Shown here: positions 20,995 to 34,679 of the stretch, in pieces
Numbering within the stretch: the stretch's first letter is position 1
How the letters are laid out: each line of letters starts with the position of its first letter
Assembly: GCF_024223415.1 (NCBI RefSeq)
Contig: NZ_CP100500.1
Origin: Escherichia coli
Lineage (GTDB): Bacteria; Pseudomonadota; Gammaproteobacteria; Enterobacterales; Enterobacteriaceae
Reading direction: 5' to 3' (one strand)
DNA: 64,000 bases
Notes under the pieces: generated by a model
Database searches by the model: none
Told to the model about the DNA's origin: nothing
The model's input: only the letters and a program-made list of their open reading frames with translations
Made by a program: the position numbers and the translations under genes

Positions 20995-22230
20995 ATGATT
21001 ACACATTTTCGTCAAGCCATAGAAGAAGCGCTGCCCTGGCTTTCCTCATTTGGCGCTGACCCAACGGGTGGGATGACCCGTTTACTTTATTCGCCGGAAT
21101 GGCTGGAAACCCAGCAGCAATTTAAAAAAAGAATGGCCGCAAGTGGGCTGGAAACACGTTTCGATGAAGTGGGGAATTTATACGGTCGCCTGAGTGGCAC
21201 CGAATATCCACAGGAAGTGGTTCTGAGCGGTTCGCATATCGATACCGTGGTTAACGGCGGTAACCTCGACGGGCAATTCGGCGCGCTGGCGGCGTGGCTG
21301 GCAATTGACTGGCTGAAAACTCAATACGGCGCACCGCTGCGTACGGTTGAAGTGGTGGCGATGGCGGAAGAAGAAGGCAGCCGCTTCCCGTATGTTTTCT
21401 GGGGCAGTAAAAATATCTTTGGGCTGGCGAATCCTGACGACGTGCGGAATATCTGTGATGCCAAAGGAAATAGTTTTGTCGATGCGATGAAGGCTTGCGG
21501 ATTTACTCTGCCGGACGCCCCGCTAACTCCGCGTCAGGATATTAAAGCCTTTGTCGAACTGCATATCGAACAGGGCTGTGTGCTGGAAAGTAATGGGCAA
21601 TCAATTGGCGTGGTGAATGCAATTGTCGGGCAACGTCGCTATACGGTGACGCTGAACGGCGAATCAAACCATGCAGGCACCACGCCGATGGATTATCGTC
21701 GTGATACGGTTTACGCTTTCAGTCGCATTTGCCATCAGTCGATCGAAAAAGCGAAAAAGATGGGCGACCCGCTGGTGCTGACCTTTGGTAAGGTGGAGCC
21801 GCGCCCGAATACGGTGAATGTGGTGCCGGGTAAAACCACGTTCACCATTGATTGTCGTCATACCGACGCCGCCGTGCTGCGTGATTTCACCCAACAGTTA
21901 GAAAACGACATGCGGGCGATTTGCGATGAAATGGACATTGGTATTGATATCGATTTATGGATGGACGAAGAACCCGTGCCGATGAATAAGGACCTGGTCG
22001 CCACCCTGACAGAATTGTGTGAAAGTGAAAAACTGAATTACCGGGTGATGCACAGTGGTGCCGGGCACGACGCGCAAATTTTCGCGCCTCGCGTGCCGAC
22101 CTGCATGATTTTCATTCCCAGCATCAATGGGATCAGCCATAACCCGGCGGAACGCACCAATATTACCGACCTTGCCGAAGGGGTCAAAACGTTGGCACTC
22201 ATGCTTTATCAACTTGCCTGGCAGAAATAA
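20995..22230 (+). CDS. allC: Allantoate amidohydrolase
   Basis: 411-aa product from MITHFRQAIEEALPW...; M20 peptidase family. Confidence 0.9.
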   Translation: MITHFRQAIEEALPWLSSFGADPTGGMTRLLYSPEWLETQQQFKKRMAASGLETRFDEVGNLYGRLSGTEYPQEVVLSGSHIDTVVNGGNLDGQFGALAAWLAIDWLKTQYGAPLRTVEVVAMAEEEGSRFPYVFWGSKNIFGLANPDDVRNICDAKGNSFVDAMKACGFTLPDAPLTPRQDIKAFVELHIEQGCVLESNGQSIGVVNAIVGQRRYTVTLNGESNHAGTTPMDYRRDTVYAFSRICHQSIEKAKKMGDPLVLTFGKVEPRPNTVNVVPGKTTFTIDCRHTDAAVLRDFTQQLENDMRAICDEMDIGIDIDLWMDEEPVPMNKDLVATLTELCESEKLNYRVMHSGAGHDAQIFAPRVPTCMIFIPSINGISHNPAERTNITDLAEGVKTLALMLYQLAWQK

Positions 22231-22236
22231 GGAGTC

Positions 22237-22249
22237 ATAAATGGGATAT
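22237..22249. repeat. attL core: left copy of the 13-bp direct repeat ATAAATGGGATAT (includes the native allE ATG)
   Basis: Matches ATAAAAGGGATAT at 33890-33902 in 12 of 13 positions; the allE start codon plus 2 codons are followed by foreign sequence. Confidence 0.6.
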
Positions 22250-22322
22250 ATCTATAACTTATTTTCAATAAGGTATTGATTTAATTAAACAACTTACACT
22301 ACAAAAAGTGCCAAAAATCGCA

Positions 22323-22347
22323 AATTAACTACACCATTAACTACACC
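22323..22347. repeat. Tandem AATTAACTACACC / ATTAACTACACC repeats, left arm (candidate integrase arm-type sites)
   Basis: The same 25-bp tandem is present at 33743-33767 next to int; flanking ~60 bp is also similar at both ends. Confidence 0.5.
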
Positions 22348-22639
22348 GTTCGGCGCACTGTATGAAACAACGTGGAACAAATAGGCACAAGAAATATAAA
22401 GGCGGGTAATTTTAAGGGGGCGTTGCTGTCGATACGGGGATCCACATATCGAGATTGATACCTGGCTTTTTTTCCGGTTAACCTTTAATCAGGCTGGTGG
22501 GCTTTACCTGTTCTGTAGGAGTGGTCATTATGACCATTCAGCCAATGACCTTAATCAGAATTTTTCGCTAAAAAATGACGTTGGCCACGTCATCCGGAAA
22601 GCACAAAATCACGTCGATTTTTAATGGATGGTTAAACCG

Positions 22640-23000
22640 TCTTTTTGTCACGGTGTGTCACTGGTTGTCACGCTCTGTCACGATGTCCGGCCTCCTCACA
22701 TTGAGGATTGTGGAAGAATCAATGGGTTAGTCTTACTACCCAAACTACGGGTAGTTTCCGTAGTTTCATGGTCGAGTTGCAGATCTGCAACTCCCCCATC
22801 AACCACAGGCGAATTTCCGCCTTCGGTCATTCCTTAATCATCTGCGTAATCATAATGATTATTCAGCCACCTCAATTTTGAGGTTTGCTTTAAGTTCAGC
22901 GAGTTACCGCGCCGACTTCCTCAAATTGAGGTTTCCGAAAATATCAGTGGGTTAGCGATTAAGCTGACCATTAATTAAACTGCGAAAATTTCGTAGTTTG
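22640..23000. promoter_or_regulatory. Repeat-dense non-coding region; candidate packaging (cos-like) or TerS-binding region
   Basis: Four TGTCAC copies at exact 10-bp spacing (22646-22681); 20-bp perfect palindrome GAGTTGCAGATCTGCAACTC (22774-22793); three CCTCA-N3/4-TGAGG inverted repeats; no convincing ORF. Confidence 0.35.
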
Positions 23001-23087
23001 TGACTGTCTTTCAGGCAGCTTGTTATCAGTCCTCAGATGTGAGGGATGTAGCCAGCGCAATTTTGCGTTATCGGGAATATCAGCAAG

Positions 23088-23369
23088 TTACCGCCGTAAC
23101 CGTTCCGGCTTCTTCCACTGATAAGTGTTTTTCGCGCTCTCCTGATACATCGCCACGCGTCGACGGTATGCCAGCAACTCTAGTACTCTGATTCGTATGT
23201 CGCGCATATCCACGCCGTTAAGCTCAATACCATCACGGCGCATTACATCAGCAACAACACGCACGTAATTTTCGGCGATCACGCTGTCCGGCTGCGTGGC
23301 CTGTTCGTCATGCTGCTGGCTGATTCCGGTAACGCGGCGGATTAATCCCAGTAGTTCGGCTTCTGTCAT
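23088..23369 (-). CDS. Hypothetical protein (island, distal to head module)
   Basis: 93-aa ORF; no recognisable domain; coding status uncertain. Confidence 0.3.
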   Translation of the reverse strand: MTEAELLGLIRRVTGISQQHDEQATQPDSVIAENYVRVVADVMRRDGIELNGVDMRDIRIRVLELLAYRRRVAMYQESAKNTYQWKKPERLRR

Positions 23370-23423
23370 TGTGCCCCCATCGCTCTGATAGTCTGGTGTC
23401 GTCGGGTCCTTCTGGAATTATGG

Positions 23424-23468
23424 CCCGTTACGGGGCGTCGACCTCGCGGTTTTTCGCTATTTATGAGC
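23424..23468. repeat. Inverted repeat, left copy (flanks the Nu1-like gene cassette)
   Basis: Its reverse complement matches 24169-24212 in about 42 of 44 positions, including a perfect 25-bp core CGCGAGGTCGACGCCCCGTAACGGG. Confidence 0.7.
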
Positions 23469-23661
23469 TTTTTTAGAGGGAGGTTGTTGTTTAATTGTTT
23501 GTCATATCCATTTGATAACTAAGTAAAAATAAAGAGCAATACAACAACCTGATAGTGTTTTTTTGATGCTAAAAATAAAAAAATACTAATTGAATCAAAT
23601 AGTTTTAAAAAAATACGTGGTTGTTGTATTGCGTATTTGATGGCGTAACAGAAAGTGATTT

Positions 23662-24102
23662 TTAACTTTGCTGTTCTGTAACGACTGATTGTTCCATGCT
23701 GGCACGGCGAACGCTTACGGCATGACGCCACCCAGCCAGAAAGCCAGCCATTTTATTTCGTGCCTTGCTCACATCTTCCGGTGAATAGCCGTAAATATGC
23801 AAACCTTCATCAAATCGCTGTTCTGTTTCTTCACTGAAATACTCGTCGCGCTCTGACGCAATCAACCTGGCAACCATAATCTTTTCCAGTGCGCTGGTTT
23901 CTCCGTGGTACTCAATAGCATCAAGATGGCTTTTACCCATGCACCAGAATAATGTGTGTCCGATGTGATAACCGCCGGACTTTCCGCGATCCGCATCAAG
24001 ATATGGCATGCCCTGTTTGGTCCATGCGCGAATAGTGGTTCTGTTGACCTTGAAATGTTCTGCTATTTCCTGCTGACTCACAAAACAAGCTTTATCAATC
24101 AT
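23662..24102 (-). CDS. Terminase small subunit, lambda Nu1-like (HTH DNA-packaging protein)
   Basis: 146-aa ORF; N-terminus VSQQEIAEHFKVNRTTIRAWTKQGMPYLDADRGKSGG parallels lambda Nu1 (..IRTIQNWQEQGMPVLRGGGKG..). Confidence 0.7.
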   Translation of the reverse strand: MIDKACFVSQQEIAEHFKVNRTTIRAWTKQGMPYLDADRGKSGGYHIGHTLFWCMGKSHLDAIEYHGETSALEKIMVARLIASERDEYFSEETEQRFDEGLHIYGYSPEDVSKARNKMAGFLAGWRHAVSVRRASMEQSVVTEQQS

Positions 24103-24168
24103 AATGTTACCTTAATCATGCGATTAAATGTTAATCAAGTGGTGGTGGTGTCACCTTCACGGAAAAAC

Positions 24169-24212
24169 GTCATAAATAGCGAAAACGCGCGAGGTCGACG
24201 CCCCGTAACGGG
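24169..24212. repeat. Inverted repeat, right copy (flanks the Nu1-like gene cassette)
   Basis: Partner of 23424-23468 in inverted orientation; the two enclose ~700 bp containing only the Nu1-like gene and an AT-rich tract. Confidence 0.7.
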
Positions 24213-24233
24213 TCCACATGCCGGAAAGGACCC

Positions 24234-24258
24234 GCAAAAAAAGCCGGATTTCTCCGGC
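24234..24258 (-). terminator. Rho-independent terminator after orf137
   Basis: Minus-strand hairpin GCCGGAGAAATCCGGC followed by a T-run; nearly the same terminator recurs at 26509-26532. Confidence 0.5.
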
Positions 24259-24264
24259 CTTGTC

Positions 24265-24678
24265 TCAGATGGTTTTCAGTATGCGATCGATGTCGCCGTC
24301 ATCGCCCTGGTTTGTGCCATCGTATGCCATGCCAGCTGATACGGCTTTCGGGCTGTGCATGTCCATAAAGTTTTCAAAGGCTGAAGTAAGCTCTGGTGCA
24401 ACCTTCGGGCGTTCCTGCTCTATGGTCATGCTAAGGATGCTTTTAGCCGTACCAACATCGATACAAGGCACGTTAGCCATTGCACGTAACAGCGGCTGGT
24501 AGTCGTCAGATTCATGAAGCGCCATAATCGCATCAGCGCGCGGCTTGTCCTGTTCTTCCAGTTTGTTGAGTCGGTGTATGGCCTCGTAGGTTGATAAACC
24601 TCTGTCAGCCATTGCCCGCGCTTCGGCTTTAAATTTACTCGCCAGCGGTAGCTTCATGATACTTTCATTCGTTGCCAT
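24265..24678 (-). CDS. Hypothetical head-module protein (137 aa)
   Basis: ORF directly downstream of the D-like gene in the same operon; acidic C-terminus; no recognisable domain. Confidence 0.5.
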   Translation of the reverse strand: MATNESIMKLPLASKFKAEARAMADRGLSTYEAIHRLNKLEEQDKPRADAIMALHESDDYQPLLRAMANVPCIDVGTAKSILSMTIEQERPKVAPELTSAFENFMDMHSPKAVSAGMAYDGTNQGDDGDIDRILKTI

Positions 24679-24690
24679 CGTTCCCCCTGC

Positions 24691-25026
24691 TTATCGTGCC
24701 AGCGGCTGAACGGATACGCCGGAACCCGCAAAGGCGGCGCATTTTTTCGCATCGGTGTCGACGCTATCAGGCCAGTTAACGGCGGCAATATTGAATATCC
24801 CCGTTTTGTAACACTGTGCTGATTTCTGCTTTGACGTGTCCACGGGGTGCGAAGTCAGATAAACAGCTTTGCCAGATTCCTGACCATCCCACGCCTTAAA
24901 CTCGCCATTGTCTGCCAGCATCAGCGGGGTAAATTCCTGAATAACGCCAGCATCAGCGGCAAAATGTACCAGCGTCGTGGATACCTGCTGGCTGCCTGAA
25001 AATAACTCAATGTATGGAGCGTCCAT
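24691..25026 (-). CDS. Head decoration protein, lambda gpD-like
   Basis: 111-aa ORF with gpD-like motifs (TPLMLAD..AWDG..KTGIF..WP..AAFAGSG) and lambda D size. Confidence 0.75.
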   Translation of the reverse strand: MDAPYIELFSGSQQVSTTLVHFAADAGVIQEFTPLMLADNGEFKAWDGQESGKAVYLTSHPVDTSKQKSAQCYKTGIFNIAAVNWPDSVDTDAKKCAAFAGSGVSVQPLAR

Positions 25027-25037
25027 AGAATCCCCCG

Positions 25038-26093
25038 TTAAGCAATTTTGACGGTAACAAATTTGCGAATATCTGCCGGTACCGGCTGCGGTGCGCTGTG
25101 CGTCTGCACGTACTCAATCGCCGGATCGCCGTCCTCAATCCAGTTTTTCGGGTAGTACATGTTTTGCGTTGCGCCCGTTCTTACCGCTTCCTGATCCATA
25201 ATCGCACCATATGCCACCAGCCCTTTATTGTTGGTGTTACCCAGGACCAGCAAATCAGGCTCAAGGAAATATTTTTCGGTGCCGTCGCTGTCAGTGTATT
25301 TGCCGGAATAGACGATAAGGGCCAGATCACCAAGATAGCCTTTAAAGCTCACCACTTCGCCCAGGTTTTTACAGGCCAGCTCGGCGGCGGATTCTGACCC
25401 ACGGGAAAGATCGTACAGTTCACGGAATTTTTTAAAGCTGCGTAATGTGCGCCATACCTCACCGCCCATAATCATGACGTTGGCGGGGCAACCTGCCTGA
25501 TCAGCATAAAGCTCGATGTCATAGATTGGGTCGTGCATGTCTTTATCCTGCTGGGACCATTTTTTACCACTGGCCTGCTGTATGATGCAGTTTTCCGGTA
25601 TTTTCCAGTCGATTTCATAGCGTTCTATGCCTTCGCCCTCAATGATGTTTTTTCCGGTCGTTACCGCATTCACCGCCAGCCATTCAACACGCGCTTTAAT
25701 GGCGTTTACCTGGCGGCGCATGTTGCCAGTAATCAGGCGCATACGGCGATAGGTTGGGTCGTTAAGCTGTGCCGGATCTTCTCCAGCCATGCGCATGATG
25801 GTCTTTGTTGGATCGATTTCGTGCTTTGGCTTCATGTAGCCTGGTTTAATCGTGCTGGTTTCGTACCCTTTATCGCGCTGGACCTGACTACCCACCATAG
25901 GAGAACAGAACGCAGACATCGTAACCTCTTCAATGTCCAGGGTGTCCAGCATGATGTTTTGGGTGTTGAAGGTCGCCACGTTCGGGAAAAACAGCGTGGT
26001 AAACAGCGGACTAAATTTAAATTCCGAAATATCCCCGCGATTCAGGTACGCGAAAAGCTGGTTAGTTGTAAGTGCCGTTGCTTTGCCTGTCAT
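25038..26093 (-). CDS. Major capsid protein, lambda gpE family
   Basis: 351-aa ORF with many lambda gpE identities (PGYMKPKHE, DPTYRRMRLI, VVSFKGYLGDLALIVYSGKY, VLGNT, YPKNW..GDPA, SAP). Confidence 0.85.
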   Translation of the reverse strand: MTGKATALTTNQLFAYLNRGDISEFKFSPLFTTLFFPNVATFNTQNIMLDTLDIEEVTMSAFCSPMVGSQVQRDKGYETSTIKPGYMKPKHEIDPTKTIMRMAGEDPAQLNDPTYRRMRLITGNMRRQVNAIKARVEWLAVNAVTTGKNIIEGEGIERYEIDWKIPENCIIQQASGKKWSQQDKDMHDPIYDIELYADQAGCPANVMIMGGEVWRTLRSFKKFRELYDLSRGSESAAELACKNLGEVVSFKGYLGDLALIVYSGKYTDSDGTEKYFLEPDLLVLGNTNNKGLVAYGAIMDQEAVRTGATQNMYYPKNWIEDGDPAIEYVQTHSAPQPVPADIRKFVTVKIA

Positions 26094-26299
26094 TATTCAC
26101 CTCCGTGAACCTGATTGATACCCAGCGCCGCACGTAAATAGGTGCGCACCTGCCAGCCTGTTGACGGCTCAACCATCGCCAGCGGATCAAGTCCTGCCGC
26201 AATGCCTGCTTTTACATTCTGCTGGTGGCGTTCCTTGAGCGCCTCCACGATGTCGGGGCTTATGTAGACCGTCACCCCGCCTTTTTTCTCTTCTGCCAT
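26093..26299 (-). CDS. Hypothetical protein translationally coupled to the capsid gene (68 aa)
   Basis: ORF whose stop overlaps the capsid gene start; no recognisable domain. Confidence 0.45.
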   Translation of the reverse strand: MAEEKKGGVTVYISPDIVEALKERHQQNVKAGIAAGLDPLAMVEPSTGWQVRTYLRAALGINQVHGGE

Positions 26300-26508
26300 A
26301 GTCAGAAATTCCTCTTTGACTTAAAAAATCATAACTGGATGTTCATCCAGTCCTGATTATAATCATGATTGCATTTTGTGCAATAATGTTGAGTTGTGTT
26401 GCAAATTATGAAATGATTATCCCGATCATGTGTGTCAGTGCACCATAAAAAACCTCGTATACAAAAGCCCGATAAGCCCCCTGTGACCTTATCGGGCTTT
26501 TTTTAGGC

Positions 26509-26532
26509 GTAAAAAAGCCGGATTGCTCCGGC
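26509..26532 (-). terminator. Rho-independent terminator after the PerC-like gene
   Basis: Minus-strand hairpin GCCGGAGCAATCCGGC followed by a T-run. Confidence 0.5.
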
Positions 26533-26539
26533 TGTGTGC

Positions 26540-26812
26540 TCACTTCTGCGGGTAGTTGCGCCATATTGCTTTGCCAATACCAGCTATCCCCATTTGTTTT
26601 TCAGTGCGATTAACTGACCTTTTCAGAGCGCCTAAATCATCCGGCGGCTCCGGTGGCCTCTGTGCCTTCCGTGAACATTCCAGCCGTCGCATTGCCACCT
26701 GTGCGCGTTCCTTGTCTGTCTCCACCAGCATCATCACTTCACCCCATCGCGCGGCCGCCCTCCGGTAAAATCCTTTCGCCTCCAGTTCCTCCGCTATCCG
26801 GTCATGTACCAT
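26540..26812 (-). CDS. PerC-family transcriptional regulator-like protein
   Basis: ORF 26540..26932; likely start MVHDRIAEELEAKGFYRRAAARWGEVMMLV, resembling PerC-family proteins; assignment from memory of the family. Confidence 0.5.
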   Translation of the reverse strand: MVHDRIAEELEAKGFYRRAAARWGEVMMLVETDKERAQVAMRRLECSRKAQRPPEPPDDLGALKRSVNRTEKQMGIAGIGKAIWRNYPQK

Positions 26813-26822
26813 CGTCACCCCC

Positions 26823-27233
26823 TCAGAACGGAATATCATCACCGTAAGGGTCATCGCCTCCCGCTGGTGGCTGATTACCCTGTGTGCCTGTGGTTTTGCG
26901 TCTGTTCCCGCCAGGACGTGCCGCACGGGCACTGATTACGCTGTCTGCGATGACCTGCCAGCCCTGCCGCGTTTCGCCGTTCTGGCCTGTCCACTGGCTT
27001 ACCTGCATGTTACCCGCCACGCTCACCAGTTCGCCTTTGTGGTGTCTGGCCAGTGCGTCGGCCTGTCTGCCAAACGCCAGGACGGATAACCACATCGTCG
27101 CCGTTCCGTCATCTGCCTGGCTGCATGGCAGGGGAACCGCCATACTCGCCATCGCCATTTGTGTCCCTTTGCTGGTCTGTTTTGTCTGCGGGTCGTCCAC
27201 CAGCCGCCCGTAAGCCGCTATCTGTGCTGTCAT
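26823..27233 (-). CDS. Single-stranded DNA-binding protein (SSB)
   Basis: 136-aa ORF with OB-fold-like N-terminus, Gly/Pro-rich linker and the canonical acidic SSB tail ...GDDIPF. Confidence 0.8.
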   Translation of the reverse strand: MTAQIAAYGRLVDDPQTKQTSKGTQMAMASMAVPLPCSQADDGTATMWLSVLAFGRQADALARHHKGELVSVAGNMQVSQWTGQNGETRQGWQVIADSVISARAARPGGNRRKTTGTQGNQPPAGGDDPYGDDIPF

Positions 27234-27487
27234 GCTGTCTGCTCTCCGGTTTTAACATTGATGGTTGTCACCTGTTCCGCTCCGGCAATCTCCCGCTCTG
27301 TCAGCGTGGCAAAGTTTGCCGCCGTCGTTGTCATGAATGCGCTTATCAGTTCGGGATGTGCTTTCGCGTATCCTTCCCCCGTGTTGCGGTCGATGATTTT
27401 TATCGCCACCCTCAGCCAGTGCTCTGTAAGGTCAATGGCGCGGTTATGTGATTTCTTCTGATTGTTAAATTTTTCTGATGTGTGCAT
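27230..27487 (-). CDS. Hypothetical protein (85 aa) upstream of ssb
   Basis: ORF overlapping the ssb start by 4 nt; no recognisable domain. Confidence 0.45.
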   Translation of the reverse strand: MHTSEKFNNQKKSHNRAIDLTEHWLRVAIKIIDRNTGEGYAKAHPELISAFMTTTAANFATLTEREIAGAEQVTTINVKTGEQTA

Positions 27488-27529
27488 TTTTATTTTTACC
27501 CCCTCGTTTAAAAAGTTTTGAGTTGTGGT

Positions 27530-27770
27530 GCACCTCCTCTACCTCTCTACACAATCATCTTTCAGGTCAGTAATGGCGCGGCTTTCAGCGGGGTAGAGGG
27601 CTTTTTTGGCCCTCTACCCGCCATCTACCACCCCCTCACAAATGCCCTGAATTATGGTAGAGGGTGTAGAGGGCTTTTAAGTACCTTCTACCTGCCATCC
27701 ACCCAATCTATCCACATGAAATATATGTAATTATTTTCTTAAGGTAGAAGGGGTAGAGGGCTTTTGTCTA
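27530..27770. repeat. Iteron array; candidate replication origin of the island
   Basis: At least six copies or variants of GGTAGAGGG(C)TTTT and its complement CCCTCTACC in about 240 bp of non-coding DNA directly 3' of the primase gene. Confidence 0.6.
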
Positions 27771-27773
27771 AAA

Positions 27774-29522
27774 CTATAAAAACGCGTCGCAGTCGTCTGT
27801 TGTTGTCACGTTGGTTTGCGTAAACCCTTTAATCCTGCGCGTTATATATTCATGACCGTAAACTTTCGCCGCTGGCTTCATGGCCTTGCTGAACTCAGCC
27901 ACGTTCAGCGGTTTGCTCCTGCCTGCATACGCCATAAACGCCAGATAGACGCGGTAAAGGCTGTTTCTGGTCGTGTACTTCACTGAATCGCCACCGCCGC
28001 CCATCATCAGGCCACGTGCTTCCTCCAGAAAATTCAGGAACTGGCAAAACTCAATAACCGGATCCGTCTGTTGCTTTATTGCCAGAGCTTCATCACCGTC
28101 TCGCTGTTCAATGAGTAAAGCCCGTGCCTTTTCAGGGTCGGCAAAGTTCGCCAGCAAGCGGCGGATAATGACAGGGATTTCAGCCGCGATCTTTTCCGGT
28201 AGCTCCCTGTCTTTTTCTGCCTCGCTTACGATGTTATCGAACCGGAATATCACCCGACGACGTGACACGCCTCCTGCCCGTTCGGTGAATATCATCGGGT
28301 TATTATTGGTTGCCAGCACAACCGCCCTGATTACCGCCGTGAATCGCTTTTCATATTTCGGGTTGATTTCCACGGGGTCGCCGCCCGTGATTTTCTTGAT
28401 GCCCGTTCCTTCGCCTGTATATTTCGGCTGGTCTGCCAGGACAATAAGCCTACTCCCGACAACCTGCGCACGCCCACCAGCATCATCAAGCGATGTCATC
28501 TCAGCGCTTACCGTGTTCTGTTTCCCTGCCAGAAGGCTGGCTATGTGTGTGAATGTACTTTTACCGCTCCCGCCGTCTCCGGTGGCCTCAATAAACATCT
28601 GCCAGTCGTACCGGTTCGCCATAATCATGTACAGCGCGGCACATATACGCATCATCTTGCGCGGGTCTTTTCCGGCAGCGTGATCAAGCCATTTATGAAA
28701 GTTTGGCGCGTTGTCGCGGATATTCTCACCTGGTACTGGCGGCGTGTACTCAATGCCGTTGTGTGTGGTGATCCAGTTCTCCGGCGTGTGCGGGGAAAAT
28801 TCCCCCGTTTTCAGGTCAAGCGCACCATTGGCGAACGGCAGCAAATCGCCGGACGGCTCGCCCATTGGTTCGGCAATAACTTTTAACGCTTCCACGGCGT
28901 TACTGATTACGCGCTTGCTGAAAGTGGCCCTGTGCTCTGAATAGATCGCCACCATTTCGCGGCTCAGTTCCATTGTGCTGACCGGACACCATACCCCGCC
29001 GCGCCATACGTGAACGATTTCACTTTCCAGATGCACACAAACGCCATCAAATCGACCAGCAAGCATCTGTGCGCGCTCACTGTCTGCCATTTGTGCCAGT
29101 TGCGTATTTTTCTGCTCCGGCATGGTAAGCCCTGCGGCAATATTTTCACGCTCAGCATTCAGATAGCGCCGCCAGTTTTCACACTTCTGACCGTGCATTC
29201 CTTCAGAGTAAAAATTCGCATCCTGAATATCTGCCGCCGCCAGCTTCTGACCAATCTTTTTGGTCTCCACTAAATCCAGTTCTCCGGCCTGGTACAGCCT
29301 TACGCGTTTTTTTCCATCCGGAACAATTTTCAGCGCATCAAGTTCAGCAAGCTGATTTGGCCCAAGCCACACAGGCGGCACATTATCGCCGGATGCGGGA
29401 CCGTCCTTCTCCTGCCACTGTTGTGCATGCGACCAGGCATCACTACCCGCAAAGATAATTACCTCTGTGTCTTTGTGTTTTATTCCGCGTGGCTGTTTTT
29501 TTACGTTCGGTGCCAGTTTCAT
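27774..29522 (-). CDS. Phage/plasmid primase-helicase (P4 alpha family; D5_N plus P-loop NTPase)
   Basis: 582-aa ORF; Walker A GDGGSGKST; architecture and size typical of satellite or PICI Pri-Rep proteins. Confidence 0.85.
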   Translation of the reverse strand: MKLAPNVKKQPRGIKHKDTEVIIFAGSDAWSHAQQWQEKDGPASGDNVPPVWLGPNQLAELDALKIVPDGKKRVRLYQAGELDLVETKKIGQKLAAADIQDANFYSEGMHGQKCENWRRYLNAERENIAAGLTMPEQKNTQLAQMADSERAQMLAGRFDGVCVHLESEIVHVWRGGVWCPVSTMELSREMVAIYSEHRATFSKRVISNAVEALKVIAEPMGEPSGDLLPFANGALDLKTGEFSPHTPENWITTHNGIEYTPPVPGENIRDNAPNFHKWLDHAAGKDPRKMMRICAALYMIMANRYDWQMFIEATGDGGSGKSTFTHIASLLAGKQNTVSAEMTSLDDAGGRAQVVGSRLIVLADQPKYTGEGTGIKKITGGDPVEINPKYEKRFTAVIRAVVLATNNNPMIFTERAGGVSRRRVIFRFDNIVSEAEKDRELPEKIAAEIPVIIRRLLANFADPEKARALLIEQRDGDEALAIKQQTDPVIEFCQFLNFLEEARGLMMGGGGDSVKYTTRNSLYRVYLAFMAYAGRSKPLNVAEFSKAMKPAAKVYGHEYITRRIKGFTQTNVTTTDDCDAFL

Positions 29523-29818
29523 TTTTTACCCCTGAATACGTTAAGCATCTTTTTTATTTCCTGAATATTGGCGCGTGCTTTCTCCCTGCTGGTTGGTTTA
29601 CTGCGGGGCGCTGCCTGTACCAGAGAAAAATCACGCCGGAACTGATAAACAGGCATCACGCAATCATATTCGTAGCCTTCACGGCGGTAAGTGATGCGCC
29701 GTTCCTCCACGCCTTTAATCGTTACCGTGCCGCCGTACTGGTCGCGGTAAATATCGCCGTTCATAAATTCAGGCCGAGCGGGGCCGCTGGCATTAACGCC
29801 AGTATTTTTCATTCCCAT
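29519..29818 (-). CDS. Hypothetical protein (99 aa), translationally coupled to primase
   Basis: Stop overlaps the primase start by 4 nt; basic protein of unknown function. Confidence 0.5.
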   Translation of the reverse strand: MGMKNTGVNASGPARPEFMNGDIYRDQYGGTVTIKGVEERRITYRREGYEYDCVMPVYQFRRDFSLVQAAPRSKPTSREKARANIQEIKKMLNVFRGKK

Positions 29819-29822
29819 ATAA

Positions 29823-30065
29823 TTAAATTCCGTTTGTGTGGTGTTTTAATTCGTCAATTTTTTCTAATGCTTTGTTTATCTTGCTGGTGGAAATATCCAG
29901 CAATTCAGAAATAGCAAATATAAGTCTTGCCGTTGATTCATCTCTTTCGTTGTTTGACAGCAATTGAAACCACACGTTTGTAATTTCAATTGCCGAATTA
30001 TTATAGGTTATTGCACTGTTCATGTATTCCGACACCTCTGCAAGCGAAAGTTTATTATTCTCCAT
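29823..30065 (-). CDS. Hypothetical protein (80 aa), AT-rich accessory gene
   Basis: Locally AT-rich ORF within the minus-strand operon. Confidence 0.4.
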   Translation of the reverse strand: MENNKLSLAEVSEYMNSAITYNNSAIEITNVWFQLLSNNERDESTARLIFAISELLDISTSKINKALEKIDELKHHTNGI

Positions 30066-30246
30066 AACGTTCTACCCTCTCATCAATTAACCACAGTGCA
30101 ACACTTCCTGACAGTCTTGCCAGAAGGCCAGCTAATGCGGATATATCATCATCATTTAATTTATTAGGGTACGCTTCAAGAAGTCTGCAAATAATTTCGG
30201 TTTGGTGGGCGCGTTCAGCGGCTTCGTGTAATGTAATTTCCTTCAT
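30055..30246 (-). CDS. Hypothetical protein (63 aa)
   Basis: ORF overlapping its neighbours by a few nt (operon). Confidence 0.4.
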   Translation of the reverse strand: MKEITLHEAAERAHQTEIICRLLEAYPNKLNDDDISALAGLLARLSGSVALWLIDERVERYGE

Positions 30247-30431
30247 TAATGCACCTCTTTTAATTCATACACTGCTGAAATAATGACTTGTGATAAGCCA
30301 TATTCTGATGATTCGCTTCTCACCGCAGCAATAGCCGTCTGAACATTAACAGCCTTCACATTCTGAGCGATACCAATTGTGTGGCCTAGTGGGTTAACAG
30401 CTCGGGCAAATACACGGAAGGTTTTAAGCAT
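30246..30431 (-). CDS. Hypothetical protein (61 aa)
   Basis: ORF overlapping its neighbours (operon). Confidence 0.4.
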   Translation of the reverse strand: MLKTFRVFARAVNPLGHTIGIAQNVKAVNVQTAIAAVRSESSEYGLSQVIISAVYELKEVH

Positions 30432-30789
30432 GGCGCACCCCCTGAATAACCTGATATCCGCAACTGGTCAGCAATTCGATAAATTCCGGCAGAGTGCCAA
30501 AACAGCAATCAGTGCGTAGCTGTTCGCAGGATACCTCAACGCCGTTTTCGTAATGGCTCACTATGCGCCCGGTAAAATGCGGATCATCATCGTGATGGCA
30601 CGTTGACGGTTTCATCAGCCGCGCGCGTTCCGCCAGTTCCAGCAATGCTTCAACGCTTCCGGCAATTGCACCATCCGGCAGGTGATAATTACTTACTACG
30701 CGTCCATTCTCTACATTGACCAGTAGCTGTCCGGTAAATTTCTCACGAAACTGAACGCGGTTAAGATCGGTAAGTGACAGGTTAATCAT
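30424..30789 (-). CDS. Hypothetical Cys/His-containing protein (about 122 aa)
   Basis: ORF track 30424..30831; ATG at 30789 overlaps the upstream gene stop (ATGATTAA); contains CHHDDDPH...C..CC, a possible metal site. Confidence 0.45.
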   Translation of the reverse strand: MINLSLTDLNRVQFREKFTGQLLVNVENGRVVSNYHLPDGAIAGSVEALLELAERARLMKPSTCHHDDDPHFTGRIVSHYENGVEVSCEQLRTDCCFGTLPEFIELLTSCGYQVIQGVRHA

Positions 30790-30979
30790 GGCACACCTCC
30801 TGACGAATACGGGCGGCGAATACAGCGACACAACCGGACGGGCAACGGTTACGCGCTTCGCGTTCTGTCCAGGCGGTCACGTGGATAATTTGAGATTCTC
30901 CGGCACTCAGTGCCAGAAAACGCCACACAAAGGCGGTTTGTGTGTGCGCAAGGCGTGGGGTATGCTGTGTTCCAGCCAT
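30782..30979 (-). CDS. Small protein resembling P4 Icd-like / Ash-family (host cell-division inhibitor-like)
   Basis: 65-aa ORF MAGTQHTPRLAHTQTAFVWRFLALSAGESQIIHVTAWTEREARNRC...; SD GAGGT 7 nt upstream; first gene of the leftward operon; family assignment tentative. Confidence 0.4.
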   Translation of the reverse strand: MAGTQHTPRLAHTQTAFVWRFLALSAGESQIIHVTAWTEREARNRCPSGCVAVFAARIRQEVCHD

Positions 30980-31069
30980 AATCGTTACCTCAATTAATGG
31001 TTTGGTTAGAAGCCCGTTGGTGTTCATAGCGCCAGCGGGCTTTGTCTTTTCATCGATTACCTCAATAAA

Positions 31070-31151
31070 GGTGTCAGCCACTATACTAGTAACAGGTGTC
31101 AGCCACGTCAATAGTGTTTTTCCATTTTCTTGTGTGTATACTGTCAGCCAC
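31070..31151. promoter_or_regulatory. Three direct repeats of (G)GTGTCAGCCAC in the divergent promoter region (candidate operators)
   Basis: Copies at about 31070-31081, 31095-31106 and 31141-31151, between the leftward icd-like operon and the rightward RHH gene; a TATACT -10-like hexamer abuts copy 3. Confidence 0.5.
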
Positions 31152-31172
31152 CTAATAACAAGGAAATCAGAT

Positions 31173-31352
31173 ATGGCAACGAAAGCAGTTAATGGAAAAT
31201 CCAAAAAACTTGAGGCACGAGTCCCCCATGCAATAGCTGACGCTTTAGAAAATTTAAAGGAAGAAGGCGAAAGCACTGGGCAATTTATCGTTTCGGCACT
31301 TGAAGGCGAGATCAAACGCCGCCAGCGCCGGAAGGCCAAAGAATCAGAATAA
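31173..31352 (+). CDS. Small RHH/Arc-like DNA-binding protein; candidate island repressor
   Basis: 59-aa ORF MATKAVNGKSKKLEARVPHAIADALENLKEEGESTGQFIVSALEGEIKRRQ...; SD AAGGA; transcribed divergently from the replication operon. Confidence 0.55.
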   Translation: MATKAVNGKSKKLEARVPHAIADALENLKEEGESTGQFIVSALEGEIKRRQRRKAKESE

Positions 31353-31400
31353 TCACTATCAGCGCCGTGGTGTGAGGTACTGCGGCGCATTGTTTTAAAG

Positions 31401-31601
31401 GTGATAATTATGAATAACCAAGAACTACAAAATAAAGCATTATCAATTATCATGCGCCAGCGTGAGAAAACCCGCAGGGAAATAAATAAGGCATTAACCC
31501 GCACTGAAAATCTTAAAGTTCCTGATAAGTTCGCCCTTGATCCTTTTGTCGAGAAATACCCTCGGCGCTTAAAAGCAAACAAAAACCGCCCACCTGGCTG
31601 A
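31401..31601 (+). CDS. Hypothetical protein (66 aa) downstream of the RHH gene
   Basis: Short ORF on the same strand as the RHH gene, before a plus-strand terminator. Confidence 0.3.
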   Translation: MIIMNNQELQNKALSIIMRQREKTRREINKALTRTENLKVPDKFALDPFVEKYPRRLKANKNRPPG

Positions 31602-31758
31602 CAATCCACCAGCAAGCCAGGACACTGATCACATTGGCCACCGTGACAGGTGGCCTTTTCTTTGCCCGTTATCCGGCAATTGTGGCGCTTCGCCACACGG
31701 TTGATATAATCCCACTGCTCATATTCATTTTTTGCGCAGTAGGTTAATTGTTCAGAAA

Positions 31759-31787
31759 GGCGGCTCCTTATCGGGGCCGCTTTTTTT
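31759..31787 (+). terminator. Rho-independent terminator ending the rightward RHH transcription unit
   Basis: Hairpin GGCGGCTCC-TTATC-GGGGCCGC followed by TTTTTTT. Confidence 0.45.
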
Positions 31788-31928
31788 ATGTCTGAAAAAC
31801 CGCGATTTTGTTGTTTTTCAGTTTCACAAGGCCGAACGAAGCCCCGCCCCTGTTCGGGCGTATATCCAGTCTTCATGGTTAAATCTCTGTATTAGTGGAT
31901 GGGTGGCGGCTGTGTGCCGCCAGTCTTT

Positions 31929-32117
31929 TTAGTGAACTGCCTCGCAGCTTTCCTTCCATGCCAGAACTTCGGATAAAGACCAGCCAACGGAACGACCGCC
32001 CAGCTTACGCCGTGATGGGAATTGTCCGGCCTTTTCCAGGCGGTAGCGGCATGAGCGGCTAAGCCCTGTTAGCTTTTCGCATTCTTTTTCACGTATAAAC
32101 CGATCAGTGCTTAACAC
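31929..32117 (-). CDS. alpA: AlpA-family phage regulatory protein (excisionase/activator-like)
   Basis: 62-aa ORF ...KLTGLSRSCRYRLEKAGQFPSRRKLGGRSVGWSLSEVLAWKES, the AlpA HTH signature; adjacent to int. Confidence 0.8.
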   Translation of the reverse strand: MLSTDRFIREKECEKLTGLSRSCRYRLEKAGQFPSRRKLGGRSVGWSLSEVLAWKESCEAVH

Positions 32118-32409
32118 TATTGCCCCCTTTCGTTTCTTAAAGAGTTATTTCGTGTTCTATTGCGTTGGTATGTGTCTGATTGTGTCAGGGTGATTCAGAG
32201 TTGGCAAATGTTGGTGGCGGGTATTTTACAGAAACGGGGTTATTTTAATAAAAAACATTTTAATTCAGTATTATGCAAAGGCATAAAATCTCGTTTTATG
32301 CCTTTTTTCTCACTATTTAAAGCGTTATTCGCTAATGTATAAAAAACCAGTTGAGCATTAAAAATCAGCAACTTATAAATCTGTATACTTTTTGGCCTCT
32401 TGTTCGTGG

Positions 32410-32443
32410 TTGTTTCACGTTGTTGCGTATTGTTTCACGTTGT
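32410..32443. repeat. Two direct repeats TTGTTTCACGTTGT between int and alpA
   Basis: Identical 14-mers at about 32410-32423 and 32430-32443 in the int-alpA intergenic region. Confidence 0.4.
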
Positions 32444-32491
32444 ATCTGTGCACTTATCCAGTATGCGCATACTGAAAAAACACGAAAAAAA

Positions 32492-33742
32492 TTATTTTCT
32501 TCTGGTTACTGGTAGCGTGGTTACGTTTTCATGTGCTCCCGCCAGTATCTCCAACCGCTCCACCCACATATCCAGCGCATTGCGTTTCGCATCCAGATAA
32601 CGGGAATGATTATAAACTCGCTGCATTCCTGGCATCTGGTGGCCTGTAAGCTGCTCCACGACGTGAGGATCCACGCCTAAATCGTTCAGCATCGTTGTAA
32701 AGGTGCGCCGGATGTCATGCAGTGACCAGTGAGGGTGTTTAAGCCTCCTGTGCGCTAATCTTCCATACTGCGATACGCTGGCCTCCTGTTTCACTTCCCC
32801 CAGCAATAAGCCCGTGTGCCTGTTCTGCTCCACCAGCTGCGTGACGAACGGCAGTATCGCTTCCGGTATGGGCCGGAATATGGCTACCTTCGTTTTGCTG
32901 TGCTCCTTCGGAACGGTCCATAGCATTTCGGTAAAATCCCACTCCCCGATCTCCGATAGCCTCAGTTCTACTGTCCTGGCTCCGAAGACAATCAGGAGGC
33001 GGATTAGTGCGACGTAGTAAGGGGAAAATATTTTTTTGTCCAGTGCCTGCAATAATTCGCCAAGTTCTTTGTTACTTAAGACACGCTGACTTATATCCGG
33101 TTTTTTCCCAACGTCAGCAACACTCATATCATCAAGAACGTTGCTGATTGCATAGCGCCGCTTCCGGCAGAACTTAAGCGCCTGTTTGCATGTCTGTAGC
33201 AGGAATCCGGCGGAAACAGGGGCTTGCTTTGCCACCCGATCAAAACAGGCCAGCCAGTGCCGTAGCTCGCATTTATCCAGCGGCATAGCACCAATCTGCT
33301 GTATTACGTGATTATTAAGTCGCCTTTTCAGGGCGATATAATCCACGCGGTTTTCCTTTACGTAATACTCAAGCCAGTAGGTAAGCGCATCGCCAACCGT
33401 TACAGGCTTTAACGCTTCCTGTACGGTGTAATTCATCTCATGACGTGGATTTTTCCCCTCAGCCAGCCATGCGCGGCACTGTGCGGCTTTTTCCCTGGCT
33501 GCTTTCAGGCTCAGATCAGGATAATTTCCCAGCTTAATCCGTTCCGGTCGTGCTCCCCTTCCCGTTCCGGCCCTGTAGGTGAAATACCAGGTTAAAAGGC
33601 CGCTGGTTGAATGCCTGACGGTCAGGTTTCCACCGTCATTAAGAAAGACTGTTTTTTGGGCGGGTGTGCCGTTGATTTTCCTTAGCTGTGTATCGCTCAG
33701 TTTGTTAAGTGCTCTGCGCATAATTTTGATTCCGGTCATCAC
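32492..33742 (-). CDS. int: Tyrosine recombinase/integrase (P4-like, DUF4102 N-terminus)
   Basis: 416-aa ORF; N-terminus ...LNDGGNLTVRHSTSG...WYFTYR; C-terminal catalytic region HDIRRTFTT...VYNHSRY; lies at the island edge next to attR. Confidence 0.9.
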   Translation of the reverse strand: MMTGIKIMRRALNKLSDTQLRKINGTPAQKTVFLNDGGNLTVRHSTSGLLTWYFTYRAGTGRGARPERIKLGNYPDLSLKAAREKAAQCRAWLAEGKNPRHEMNYTVQEALKPVTVGDALTYWLEYYVKENRVDYIALKRRLNNHVIQQIGAMPLDKCELRHWLACFDRVAKQAPVSAGFLLQTCKQALKFCRKRRYAISNVLDDMSVADVGKKPDISQRVLSNKELGELLQALDKKIFSPYYVALIRLLIVFGARTVELRLSEIGEWDFTEMLWTVPKEHSKTKVAIFRPIPEAILPFVTQLVEQNRHTGLLLGEVKQEASVSQYGRLAHRRLKHPHWSLHDIRRTFTTMLNDLGVDPHVVEQLTGHQMPGMQRVYNHSRYLDAKRNALDMWVERLEILAGAHENVTTLPVTRRK

Positions 33743-33767
33743 AATTAACTACACCATTAACTACACC
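33743..33767. repeat. Tandem AATTAACTACACC / ATTAACTACACC repeats, right arm (candidate arm-type sites)
   Basis: Identical to 22323-22347; located immediately upstream of the int start. Confidence 0.5.
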
Positions 33768-33889
33768 GATCGTTGCACAAAGGGCTACAACGTGAAACAA
33801 GCTGGAACAAGAAAAATCACAAATTTGTTTATAATCAAAAACATAATGCACAACCTGAAACATTATGAAACGGCAAAAAACACTAATTG

Positions 33890-33902
33890 ATAAAAGGGAT
33901 AT
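33890..33902. repeat. attR core: right copy of the 13-bp direct repeat (ATAAAAGGGATAT)
   Basis: 12 of 13 match to attL; a TAA stop and AAG replace the native ATG start of allE. Confidence 0.6.
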
Positions 33903-34679
33903 TTAAATAACGTCACCGGTTACCGCGATGATTTACTGGCTAACCGTGCGATTGTGAAACACGGTAATTTCGCACTGTTAACACCAGACGGTCTGGTAAA
34001 AAATATTATTCCGGGCTTTGAAAATTGTGACGCGACAATCCTCTCCACGCCAAAGCTGGGTGCCTCTTTTGTTGATTATCTGGTCACACTGCATCAAAAC
34101 GGTGGCAACCAACAGGGCTTCGGTGGCGAAGGCATTGAAACGTTCCTGTATGTGATCTCTGGAAATATCACTGCCAAAGCCGAAGGCAAAACATTTGCCT
34201 TAAGCGAAGGTGGCTATCTTTATTGCCCGCCAGGCTCCTTAATGACGTTTGTTAACGCCCAGGCCGAAGACAGCCAAATCTTTTTATATAAGCGCCGCTA
34301 TGTTCCGGTAGAAGGCCATGCACCGTGGCTGGTTTCTGGCAATGCCAGCGAACTGGAACGCATTCACTATGAAGGTATGGATGATGTGATCCTGCTGGAT
34401 TTTCTGCCCAAAGAGTTAGGTTTTGATATGAACATGCATATCCTCTCTTTTGCACCAGGTGCCAGCCATGGTTATATCGAAACACACGTTCAGGAACACG
34501 GTGCCTATATTCTTTCCGGTCAGGGGGTTTATAACCTCGACAATAACTGGATCCCGGTGAAAAAAGGCGATTACATCTTTATGGGCGCTTATTCTTTACA
34601 GGCTGGTTATGGCGTAGGGCGTGGTGAAGCGTTCAGCTATATTTACTCGAAAGATTGCAACCGCGACGTAGAGATTTAA
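33897..34679 (+). pseudogene. allE: Ureidoglycine aminohydrolase gene truncated at its start codon by island insertion
   Basis: Reading frame GYLNNVTGYRDDLLANRAIVKHGNFALL... resumes at 33897 with no ATG; an in-frame TAA lies 2 codons upstream; first in-frame start is GTG at 33954. Confidence 0.8.

Follow-up and report, generated by a model that had tools for sequence, protein, structure and literature searches.

What are the six small genes that stand directly upstream of a primase-like replication gene in a 64,000-nucleotide stretch of the genome of Escherichia coli (assembly GCF_024223415.1, contig NZ_CP100500.1; the whole stretch is called the window below), and how are they related to that gene? 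The original prediction, made from the letters alone, took them for a tightly coupled cluster of unknown genes, co-expressed with the primase and devoid of recognisable domains, at a site where satellites often place helper-interference or defence functions. From its sequence, the element that carries them is a Gram-negative phage-inducible chromosomal island (PICI) of the EcCICFT073/OI-51 type, and the six open reading frames (ORFs) are the promoter-proximal genes of its replication operon. Comparison with related loci shows a modular block, in which the head (the Icd-like gene) and the tail (a p80-like gene and a gene of the RgdR family) are fixed and enclose an exchangeable slot, occupied here by p121, p61 and p63. 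The operon is an ordinary one, widely distributed in E. coli satellites, and the RgdR family was characterised in 2012.

The genes in question are the following, in the order in which they are read (product lengths are in amino acids, aa).

30782-30979, minus strand: ORF1, Icd-like, 65 aa, first gene of the operon
30424-30789, minus strand: ORF2, p121, 121 aa, exchangeable cassette gene
30246-30431, minus strand: ORF3, p61, 61 aa, cassette gene mostly paired with p63
30055-30246, minus strand: ORF4, p63, 63 aa, AT-rich cassette gene
29823-30065, minus strand: ORF5, p80, 80 aa, very divergent family, fixed immediately 5′ of RgdR
29519-29818, minus strand: ORF6, DUF4222/RgdR family, 99 aa, NGD at residues 20-22
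27774-29522, minus strand: replication gene ("primase"), 582 aa

All six small ORFs are present on the minus strand as claimed, except that the second codes for 121 aa, not 122. That they overlap by 1-11 nucleotides (nt) is correct for five of the six junctions: in gene order there are overlaps of 8, 8, 1 and 11 nt, then a gap of 4 nt between p80 and ORF6, and last an overlap of 4 nt, in which the stop codon of ORF6 and the ATG of the replication gene share the sequence ATGA. ATG is the start codon in all six cases, and a GGAGG/GAGG-like motif is found 5-10 nt upstream of five of the small ORFs and of the replication gene; ORF6 is preceded by a weak motif only. A search of the minus strand from the 3′ side of the icd-like ORF to the end of the replication gene (27774) found no terminator-like site, the sole minus-strand site of this kind in the region being inside the icd-like ORF. 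The overlaps, the Shine–Dalgarno motifs and the lack of an intervening terminator-like site fit the predicted translational coupling of the small genes with the replication gene in one unit. We rejected the idea that icd contains a translation-sensitive attenuator (a hairpin at 30924-30944 followed by a T-run), which is seen in the HTQTAFVW allele group only; since the hairpin is absent in other alleles, it is probably a by-product of the codons.

The ratio of non-synonymous to synonymous differences (pN/pS), calculated against non-identical homologous alleles, is 0.25-0.44 across the six ORFs (0.44 for the Icd-like gene, 0.33 for p61 and 0.29 for p63) and 0.10 for the replication gene. All six have PHROG matches with E values of 1e-26 to 1e-46, full-length in most cases. 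These two observations show that the ORFs are real genes under selection. RefSeq annotates homologues of the small ORFs in many genomes, and the labels on matching clusters in related genomes read "Icd-like, hypothetical x3, DUF4222, primase". The AT-rich pair that had been noticed consists of p80 and p63, whose GC contents are 0.34 and 0.42, against 0.50-0.57 in the flanks; over 200-nt windows, the dip across these two genes is 0.33-0.40. The claim that none of the proteins has a recognisable domain does not hold: ORF6 is a member of Pfam DUF4222 (PF13973, E 3.8e-24), and ORF1, which had been called Icd-like, indeed scores 64.9 bits over residues 17-60 against the NCBIfam Icd-like model NF033153, whose curated cut-off is 25.

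The nature of the element that carries the operon is indicated by its ends and by the genes next to them.

22323-33768: satellite island of 11,446 bp, bounded by a 26-bp repeat and inserted between allC and ylbA/allE
22323-22348 and 33743-33768: 26-bp perfect direct repeat AATTAACTACACCATTAACTACACCG, the longest exact word common to both island edges
32492-33742, minus strand: tyrosine integrase gene (int), an ORF whose homologues are annotated as site-specific integrase
31929-32117, minus strand: alpA-type regulator/excisionase gene (PHROG 2790, E 1.3e-17)

We assign the island to the Gram-negative PICIs because it combines the 26-bp repeat, int, alpA, a D5-type replication gene, genes for a single-stranded DNA-binding protein (SSB) and a PerC-type activator, and lambda-like capsid genes; the att repeat, int, alpA and the replication and capsid genes also support the view that the element is a satellite. 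As is expected of a PICI, int is at one end of the island, reads inward and adjoins the repeat copy at 33743-33768; the alpA-type gene, whose homologue in locus L001 is annotated as an AlpA family regulator, adjoins int; the island has a replication module of its own, with an iteron field 3′ of the replication gene; and within the usual size of ~10-15 kb there are capsid and packaging genes, while no tail or lysis family was found among the island ORFs scanned against PHROGs and NCBIfam. Read along the minus strand, the order is int, the AlpA-type gene, two small plus-strand genes (one of them of the YlcI/YnfO family), the six ORFs, the replication gene, the iterons, an 85-aa ORF, SSB, PerC and the capsid genes. 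This layout matches the published zones of Gram-negative PICIs, namely Integration, Bro (dynamic), Replication and Late (PMC10111431).

SSB was identified via the RefSeq labels on homologous ORFs of related islands, the major capsid protein (lambda-E-like) by homology to RefSeq-labelled genes of the same islands, and other late genes by their PHROG matches (head decoration, scaffold-like, TerS-like). Parts of the island have counterparts in about 2,000 of 5,426 complete E. coli genomes, and in the best matches the gene order is kept. The closest relatives in complete E. coli genomes are inserted in tqsA, not between allC and ylbA, and a match to the 1.7-kb cluster that covers at least 80% of its length at more than 86% identity was found in none of the complete E. 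coli genomes. We note that the late region (23088-26299) codes for a lambda-E-like capsid protein, a D-like head decoration protein, a scaffold-like protein that resembles a protease C-terminus and a TerS-like protein; a portal and a large terminase are absent, and the capsid toolkit of the satellite is a partial one.

How constant is the order of the genes in front of the replication gene? We compared 84 loci, that is, 80 IMG/VR loci encoding an RgdR relative, three annotated E. coli islands and the window; the content of the slot and the p80 family were classified in 80 of them. An Icd-like gene is found upstream in 80 of the 84 loci. Of the 80 classified loci, 77 have immediately 5′ of RgdR a member of a single, very divergent family (73-87 aa), to which p80 belongs, and in 80 of 84 loci the RgdR stop codon and the start of the long replication gene share exactly 4 nt, whatever the type of the replication protein. 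Between the Icd-like and the p80-like gene, on the contrary, there are 0-4 genes, which belong to at least seven families without detectable mutual homology. The commonest filling of this slot is p61 plus p63 (~40 loci). Counted over the 84 loci, p121 is present in 5, p61 in 45 and p63 in 53; p61 and p63 co-occur in ~45 loci, and p63 is also seen without p61. The four-gene order of the window (p121, p61, p63, p80) occurs once among the classified loci. In seven loci the slot is empty, so that Icd-like, p80, RgdR and primase genes follow one another, which shows that the cassette is dispensable; the Icd-like gene accompanies any cassette or none.

The cassette families other than those of the window gave no match in a Pfam search. 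We considered whether the small helical families (p63, p80, G3, G5, G9 and p61) are hidden paralogues of one another and rejected this, the hhalign probabilities being at most 4.4%. The subtypes of p80 co-vary with the alleles of RgdR and of the N-terminal domain of the replication protein (p80 cluster 1 always occurs with RgdR cluster 2); we do not take this as functional, since physical proximity would give the same linkage. In the cassette family G4 (loci L004, L007, L011, L015, L068, L069, L072, L073, L077, L081 and L082), an ORF of 153-228 aa directly follows the Icd-like gene and ends in another Icd-like domain (YFVWRF...TAATEREA...ARIRQG); these loci therefore have two Icd modules in tandem. 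The gene plan of the operon is also that of vB_KppS-Ant, a Klebsiella element recovered from induced particles. Proteins similar to RgdR, Icd or p121 are otherwise almost absent among 50,697 phage records.

The replication gene at the end of the operon codes for a protein with an N-terminal domain of ~135 aa without Pfam assignment, followed by D5_N, DUF5906 and Pox_D5; it also matches TIGR01613 and PHROG 864. Pfam finds no recognisable primase catalytic domain in this "primase". In related replication proteins the N-terminal ~130 aa are homologous (43-100% identity), and the C-terminal part is of one of three types across the islands: P4/D5 (582-584 aa), DUF927 (710 aa) or RepA helicase (466-468 aa). 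The site of this domain swap is just 3′ of the RgdR junction (window and loci L001, L002, L013, L045, L067, L073 and L077). The gap that follows the gene contains a repeated sequence.

27488-27773: iteron field GGTAGAGGG(C), at least nine copies in both orientations, in the 286-bp gap 3′ of the replication gene

This field is probably the origin of replication of the satellite. In Gram-negative PICIs, the origin is downstream of pri (PMC10111431).

The last small gene before the replication gene is the one about which most is known. RgdR (ECs1581) is a 99-aa basic DUF4222 protein of O-island 51 of E. coli O157:H7, which activates LEE1 and type III secretion, represses motility, increases Congo-red binding and binds DNA non-specifically (PMC3378721; PMC10877973). 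Its homologue in strain CFT073, C1493, likewise activates LEE1/type III secretion and represses motility, the deletion of OI-51 lowers the colonisation of sheep, and the family is also found in strains that have no LEE (PMC3378721). Fillol-Salom et al. recognised OI-51 as a PICI and reported that all the E. coli PICIs they analysed encode RgdR (PMC6092414). ORF6 has the same length and a basic C-terminus, and is 83% identical to the RGD-bearing homologue in L001. Its residues 20-22 are Asn-Gly-Asp, so that it lacks the RGD tripeptide, and we therefore regard it as a non-RGD allele of the RgdR family.

An AlphaFold2 model of this protein, built from an alignment of 39 sequences (mean pLDDT 76.9, ~90 at residues 21-70), predicts a disordered N-terminus, a five-stranded small barrel and a long C-terminal helix (residues 77-96). 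The barrel resembles Tudor-like modules that bind RNA polymerase (CarD RID, the C-terminal domain of UvrD/PcrA) and the KOW domains of Spt5/NusG at the level of the fold only, with 9-18% identity; small barrels are ubiquitous, and we do not claim that RgdR belongs to these families. Searching AFDB50 with RgdR returned DUF4222 proteins of Enterobacterales only, and a sequence search of the PDB gave no match. The lambdoid phage vB_EcoS-733R5 (ON470608.1, L085 3480-3659) has an unannotated 59-aa DUF4222 ORF which shares 11 nt with the start of a lambda-O-like replication gene; at this place, the record annotates a 95-aa hypothetical protein on the opposite strand. Two proteins of the representative library, P0127 (797 aa) and P0133 (1352 aa), each have five stretches similar to DUF4222, so that large proteins, too, can carry the small barrel in tandem repeats.

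Regarding the other small proteins, the searches tell more about distribution than about function. ORF1 belongs to PHROG families 29966 and 1743; tblastn with the Icd-like protein against the 50,697 phage records returned one satellite-like record and no P1-type phage. An immunity RNA of the C4/CI/isrK kind upstream of icd was looked for and rejected: Rfam (release 15, E<=1, region 22000-34500) gave no C4/isrK (C4/CI-type) match. Its weak manA match elsewhere (22714-22884, minus strand, within the island close to its left end; 19.7 bits, where the gathering threshold is 55.2, E 0.16) is below threshold and probably due to chance. p121 (PHROG 340 and 2512) has no match in Pfam, NCBIfam or PADLOC nor among the phage records, and its homologues, many of which are internal-deletion variants, are confined to E. 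coli, Shigella and Salmonella. The Cys/His cluster that had been pointed out is indeed present in p121 of the window, but it is not conserved: in homologues, C64 is replaced by S, N or V, H65 by P and C89 by R, and because of this variation we rejected a zinc-binding motif. The PDB matches of p121 to designed armadillo repeats, in which no single stretch passes, are regarded as repeat-summed noise.

The family of p61 (PHROG 3672, full length, E 6.5e-46) is narrow and almost restricted to E. coli. p63 (PHROG 1478) has relatives with 54% identity among the small early genes of Klebsiella temperate phages. The model of p80 (pLDDT 85.7) predicts a two-helix antiparallel hairpin; its fold search returned generic helical hairpins only, and its PDB sequence search one insignificant match (E 0.67). 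None of the six proteins matched any family of PADLOC-DB 2.0 at E<=0.1.

How may the expression of these genes be controlled? The operon needs its own promoter, since plus-strand genes separate it from alpA. The candidate elements are the following.

31083-31111, minus strand: sigma-70-like promoter (TTGACG, 17 nt, TAGTAT) from a consensus scan
31070-31081, 31095-31106 and 31142-31151: three copies of an operator-like repeat GTGGCTGACA(CC) around the divergent promoters
31173-31352, plus strand: divergent YlcI/YnfO-family gene, 59 aa (NCBIfam NF041551, 62.1 bits against a cut-off of 30)
31009-31043, minus strand: conserved 5′-leader hairpin, followed by an invariant CTAACCA

A TTGAC(A/G) hexamer is found at the corresponding position in related loci. 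The 12-mer GTGGCTGACACC stands directly after the -35 hexamer (31095-31106) and again directly after the -10 hexamer (31070-31081), and the third copy of the repeat (31142-31151) abuts a TATACT that faces the divergent gene. Across the islands, the form GTG-N5-6-CACC is kept and the core varies; GTGGGCCACACC, for instance, is an alternative operator type in a related island. The core co-varies with the N-terminal residues of the divergent protein, with ~10 operator types for ~10 alleles and no exception seen. This co-variation suggests that the YlcI/YnfO protein is a repressor, and we infer that protein and repeats are a candidate repressor-operator (immunity-like) module of Gram-negative PICIs. 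The protein has no Pfam or PDB match. In the leader hairpin, seven of ten pairs show compensatory changes across 13 alleles; on the opposite strand, the hairpin reads as terminator-like.

We consider it likely that, taken as a package, these genes are the early/replication operon of an integrated PICI, a coupled unit with a gated promoter, which makes core and accessory small proteins. Nearly all of this confidence rests on the identity and the architecture of the operon, and much less on the functions of individual proteins. The unit would be transcribed from the promoter at 31083-31111 as one transcript, under the control of allele-specific operator repeats that are probably recognised by the YlcI/YnfO protein, and would be switched on during helper-driven, AlpA-dependent induction. 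Ribosomes may re-initiate at each overlap, so that the small proteins would be made together with the replication protein. The Icd-like protein may arrest the division of the host. RgdR and p80 would be a cofactor of the replication or transcription of the satellite: the Tudor/KOW-like barrel of RgdR would contact a protein or RNA polymerase, and its basic C-terminal helix would bind DNA non-specifically. What has been published on RgdR in type III secretion and motility would then describe side effects. p121, p61 and p63 would be dispensable, exchangeable accessory binders of host or helper proteins.

Several observations weigh against this scheme. The control by AlpA has been demonstrated for EcCICFT073, not for the island of the window, in which two plus-strand genes stand between alpA and the operon. 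A weak promoter-like match (ATGAGA-18-AATAAT, 30054-30083, minus strand) lies in the AT-rich end of the p63 gene; an internal start at this point could free p80, RgdR and the replication gene from their coupling to the genes before them. The promoter, its operators and the action of the YlcI/YnfO protein as a repressor are deduced from sequence. The searches pointed to no function for p121, p61, p63 and p80. The experiments on RgdR concern host virulence and motility only, not the life cycle of a satellite. Moreover, the engineered substitution R20N lowers the activation of type III secretion by ECs1581 (PMC3378721), and the copy in the window carries N20. We consider unlikely a more ambitious version of the scheme, in which the slot would be an unrecognised exchange hotspot of PICIs for tiny proteins that manipulate helper or host, functional counterparts of P4 epsilon or of phage antirepressors; p80 and RgdR would be an essential, satellite-specific cofactor by which the replication initiator, or RNA polymerase, is tethered to the DNA of the satellite, the virulence effects of RgdR in EHEC being a by-product; and the YlcI/YnfO protein would be the master repressor, which as of 2018 was not identified for Gram-negative PICIs (PMC6092414).

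Other explanations have to be weighed. It may be that the cluster, or at least p121, p61 and p63, is a helper-interference, derepression or anti-phage cassette, comparable to P4 epsilon or to the P1 antirepressor. For the cluster as a whole, as in the original prediction, we find no support for this, since PADLOC detects nothing and three of the six genes are fixed and near-universal (Icd-like, p80-like and RgdR genes are present in ~77-84 of 80-84 related islands); such a function is possible in the middle slot only. The slot has indeed what is typical of exchanged accessory genes, being AT-rich and filled with 0-4 genes of at least seven unrelated small families, and it corresponds in position to epsilon/orf151 of P4; a relative of p63 is among the small early genes of temperate phages, and PICI accessory genes are said to lie between the regulation and primase modules (PMC10085698). 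However, the same study places the documented defence genes of PICIs at other sites, between att and int and after terS (PMC10085698), p121, p61 and p63 match nothing in PADLOC, Pfam or NCBIfam and are not similar to P4 epsilon or orf151, the seven islands with an empty slot show that an interference cassette would be dispensable, and the deletion variants of p121 suggest decay. We consider this explanation unlikely, though less so than those that follow. The toxin-antitoxin or abortive-infection module that one could imagine from small, overlapping and paired proteins (p61 with p63 in ~45 loci), in which the toxin would be the Icd-like protein, whose NCBIfam family is named division inhibitor, or one of the other small proteins, and the antidote a neighbour, is very improbable: searches of Pfam, NCBIfam and PADLOC matched no toxin or antitoxin family, some loci have p63 but not p61, and the Icd-like gene is found with any cassette or with none.

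That the RgdR homologue, and possibly its neighbours, are cargo of benefit to the host, a virulence/motility regulator whose site before the replication gene is incidental, would account for the activation of LEE1 and type III secretion and the repression of motility by ECs1581/C1493, and for the effect of the OI-51 deletion in sheep (PMC3378721). Yet the family is present in strains without LEE, the 4-nt overlap with the replication gene is kept in 80 of 84 islands with any replication type, a DUF4222 ORF is at the same position before the replication gene of vB_EcoS-733R5, and the allele of the window lacks the arginine of RGD; we regard cargo as improbable. Last, some of the ORFs could be chance frames in a long leader of the replication gene, since they are short and four of them have no annotated function. 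The pN/pS values, the PHROG matches, the Shine–Dalgarno-like motifs and the homologues annotated in RefSeq leave next to no room for this idea.

Three results are of use beyond this island: the division of the operon into core and cassette genes, the small barrel predicted for RgdR, and the allele-matched pairs of operator and regulator. The core (the Icd-like gene, the p80-like gene, RgdR and the replication gene) is likely to be needed for the satellite cycle, while the genes of the slot are candidate manipulators of the helper or the host. If it is true that RgdR is a replication/transcription cofactor of PICIs, this would account for the disturbance of type III secretion and motility by a satellite gene in pathogenic E. 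coli. A candidate for the missing repressor of Gram-negative PICIs is offered by the allele-matched operator/regulator pairs.

Among known systems, the immI operon of phage P1 consists of c4 RNA, icd and ant. In P1, as in the window, an ORF of the Icd family opens a translationally coupled operon after a structured leader; unlike in P1, no Ant or Bro-N protein follows the Icd-like gene here, and there is no C4/isrK match.

The left operon of P4 (vis, kil/eta with CI RNA, epsilon, orf151, cnr, alpha) is closer in plan. In both elements a chain of small genes lies between an AlpA/Vis-type regulator and a D5-type primase-helicase, a gene for a small protein directly precedes the replication gene (cnr in P4, RgdR here), and the helicase parts of the replication proteins are 40% identical (residues 141-577, against P4 alpha). 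On the contrary, the small ORFs of the operon have no homology with their P4 counterparts (searches of P4 with all six, by BLASTP and tblastn, gave nothing below E 0.03), no C4/CI-type RNA was found in the island, and its late region consists of lambda-type capsid genes. Pfam assigns cnr to DUF5375 and epsilon to Derepression, families which match the P4 proteins only and none of the six ORFs. We rejected the homology of RgdR with P4 orf151 (31% identity over 48 aa, E 0.034 in a six-protein database), which Pfam keeps outside DUF4222. No homologues of sid, delta or psu turned up among the island ORFs scanned against PHROGs and NCBIfam.

The closest likeness is to the EcCICFT073/OI-51 (CP-933C) PICIs and the related cf-PICIs. 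The island of the window differs from the EcCICFT073/OI-51 type in its insertion between allC and ylbA, where the others are in tqsA, in the addition of the rare p121, and in an RgdR copy with NGD in place of RGD. In all of them, int and alpA, a divergent small regulator, an Icd-like gene, small ORFs and DUF4222/RgdR follow one another, with the replication gene, SSB, PerC and the capsid and packaging genes downstream.

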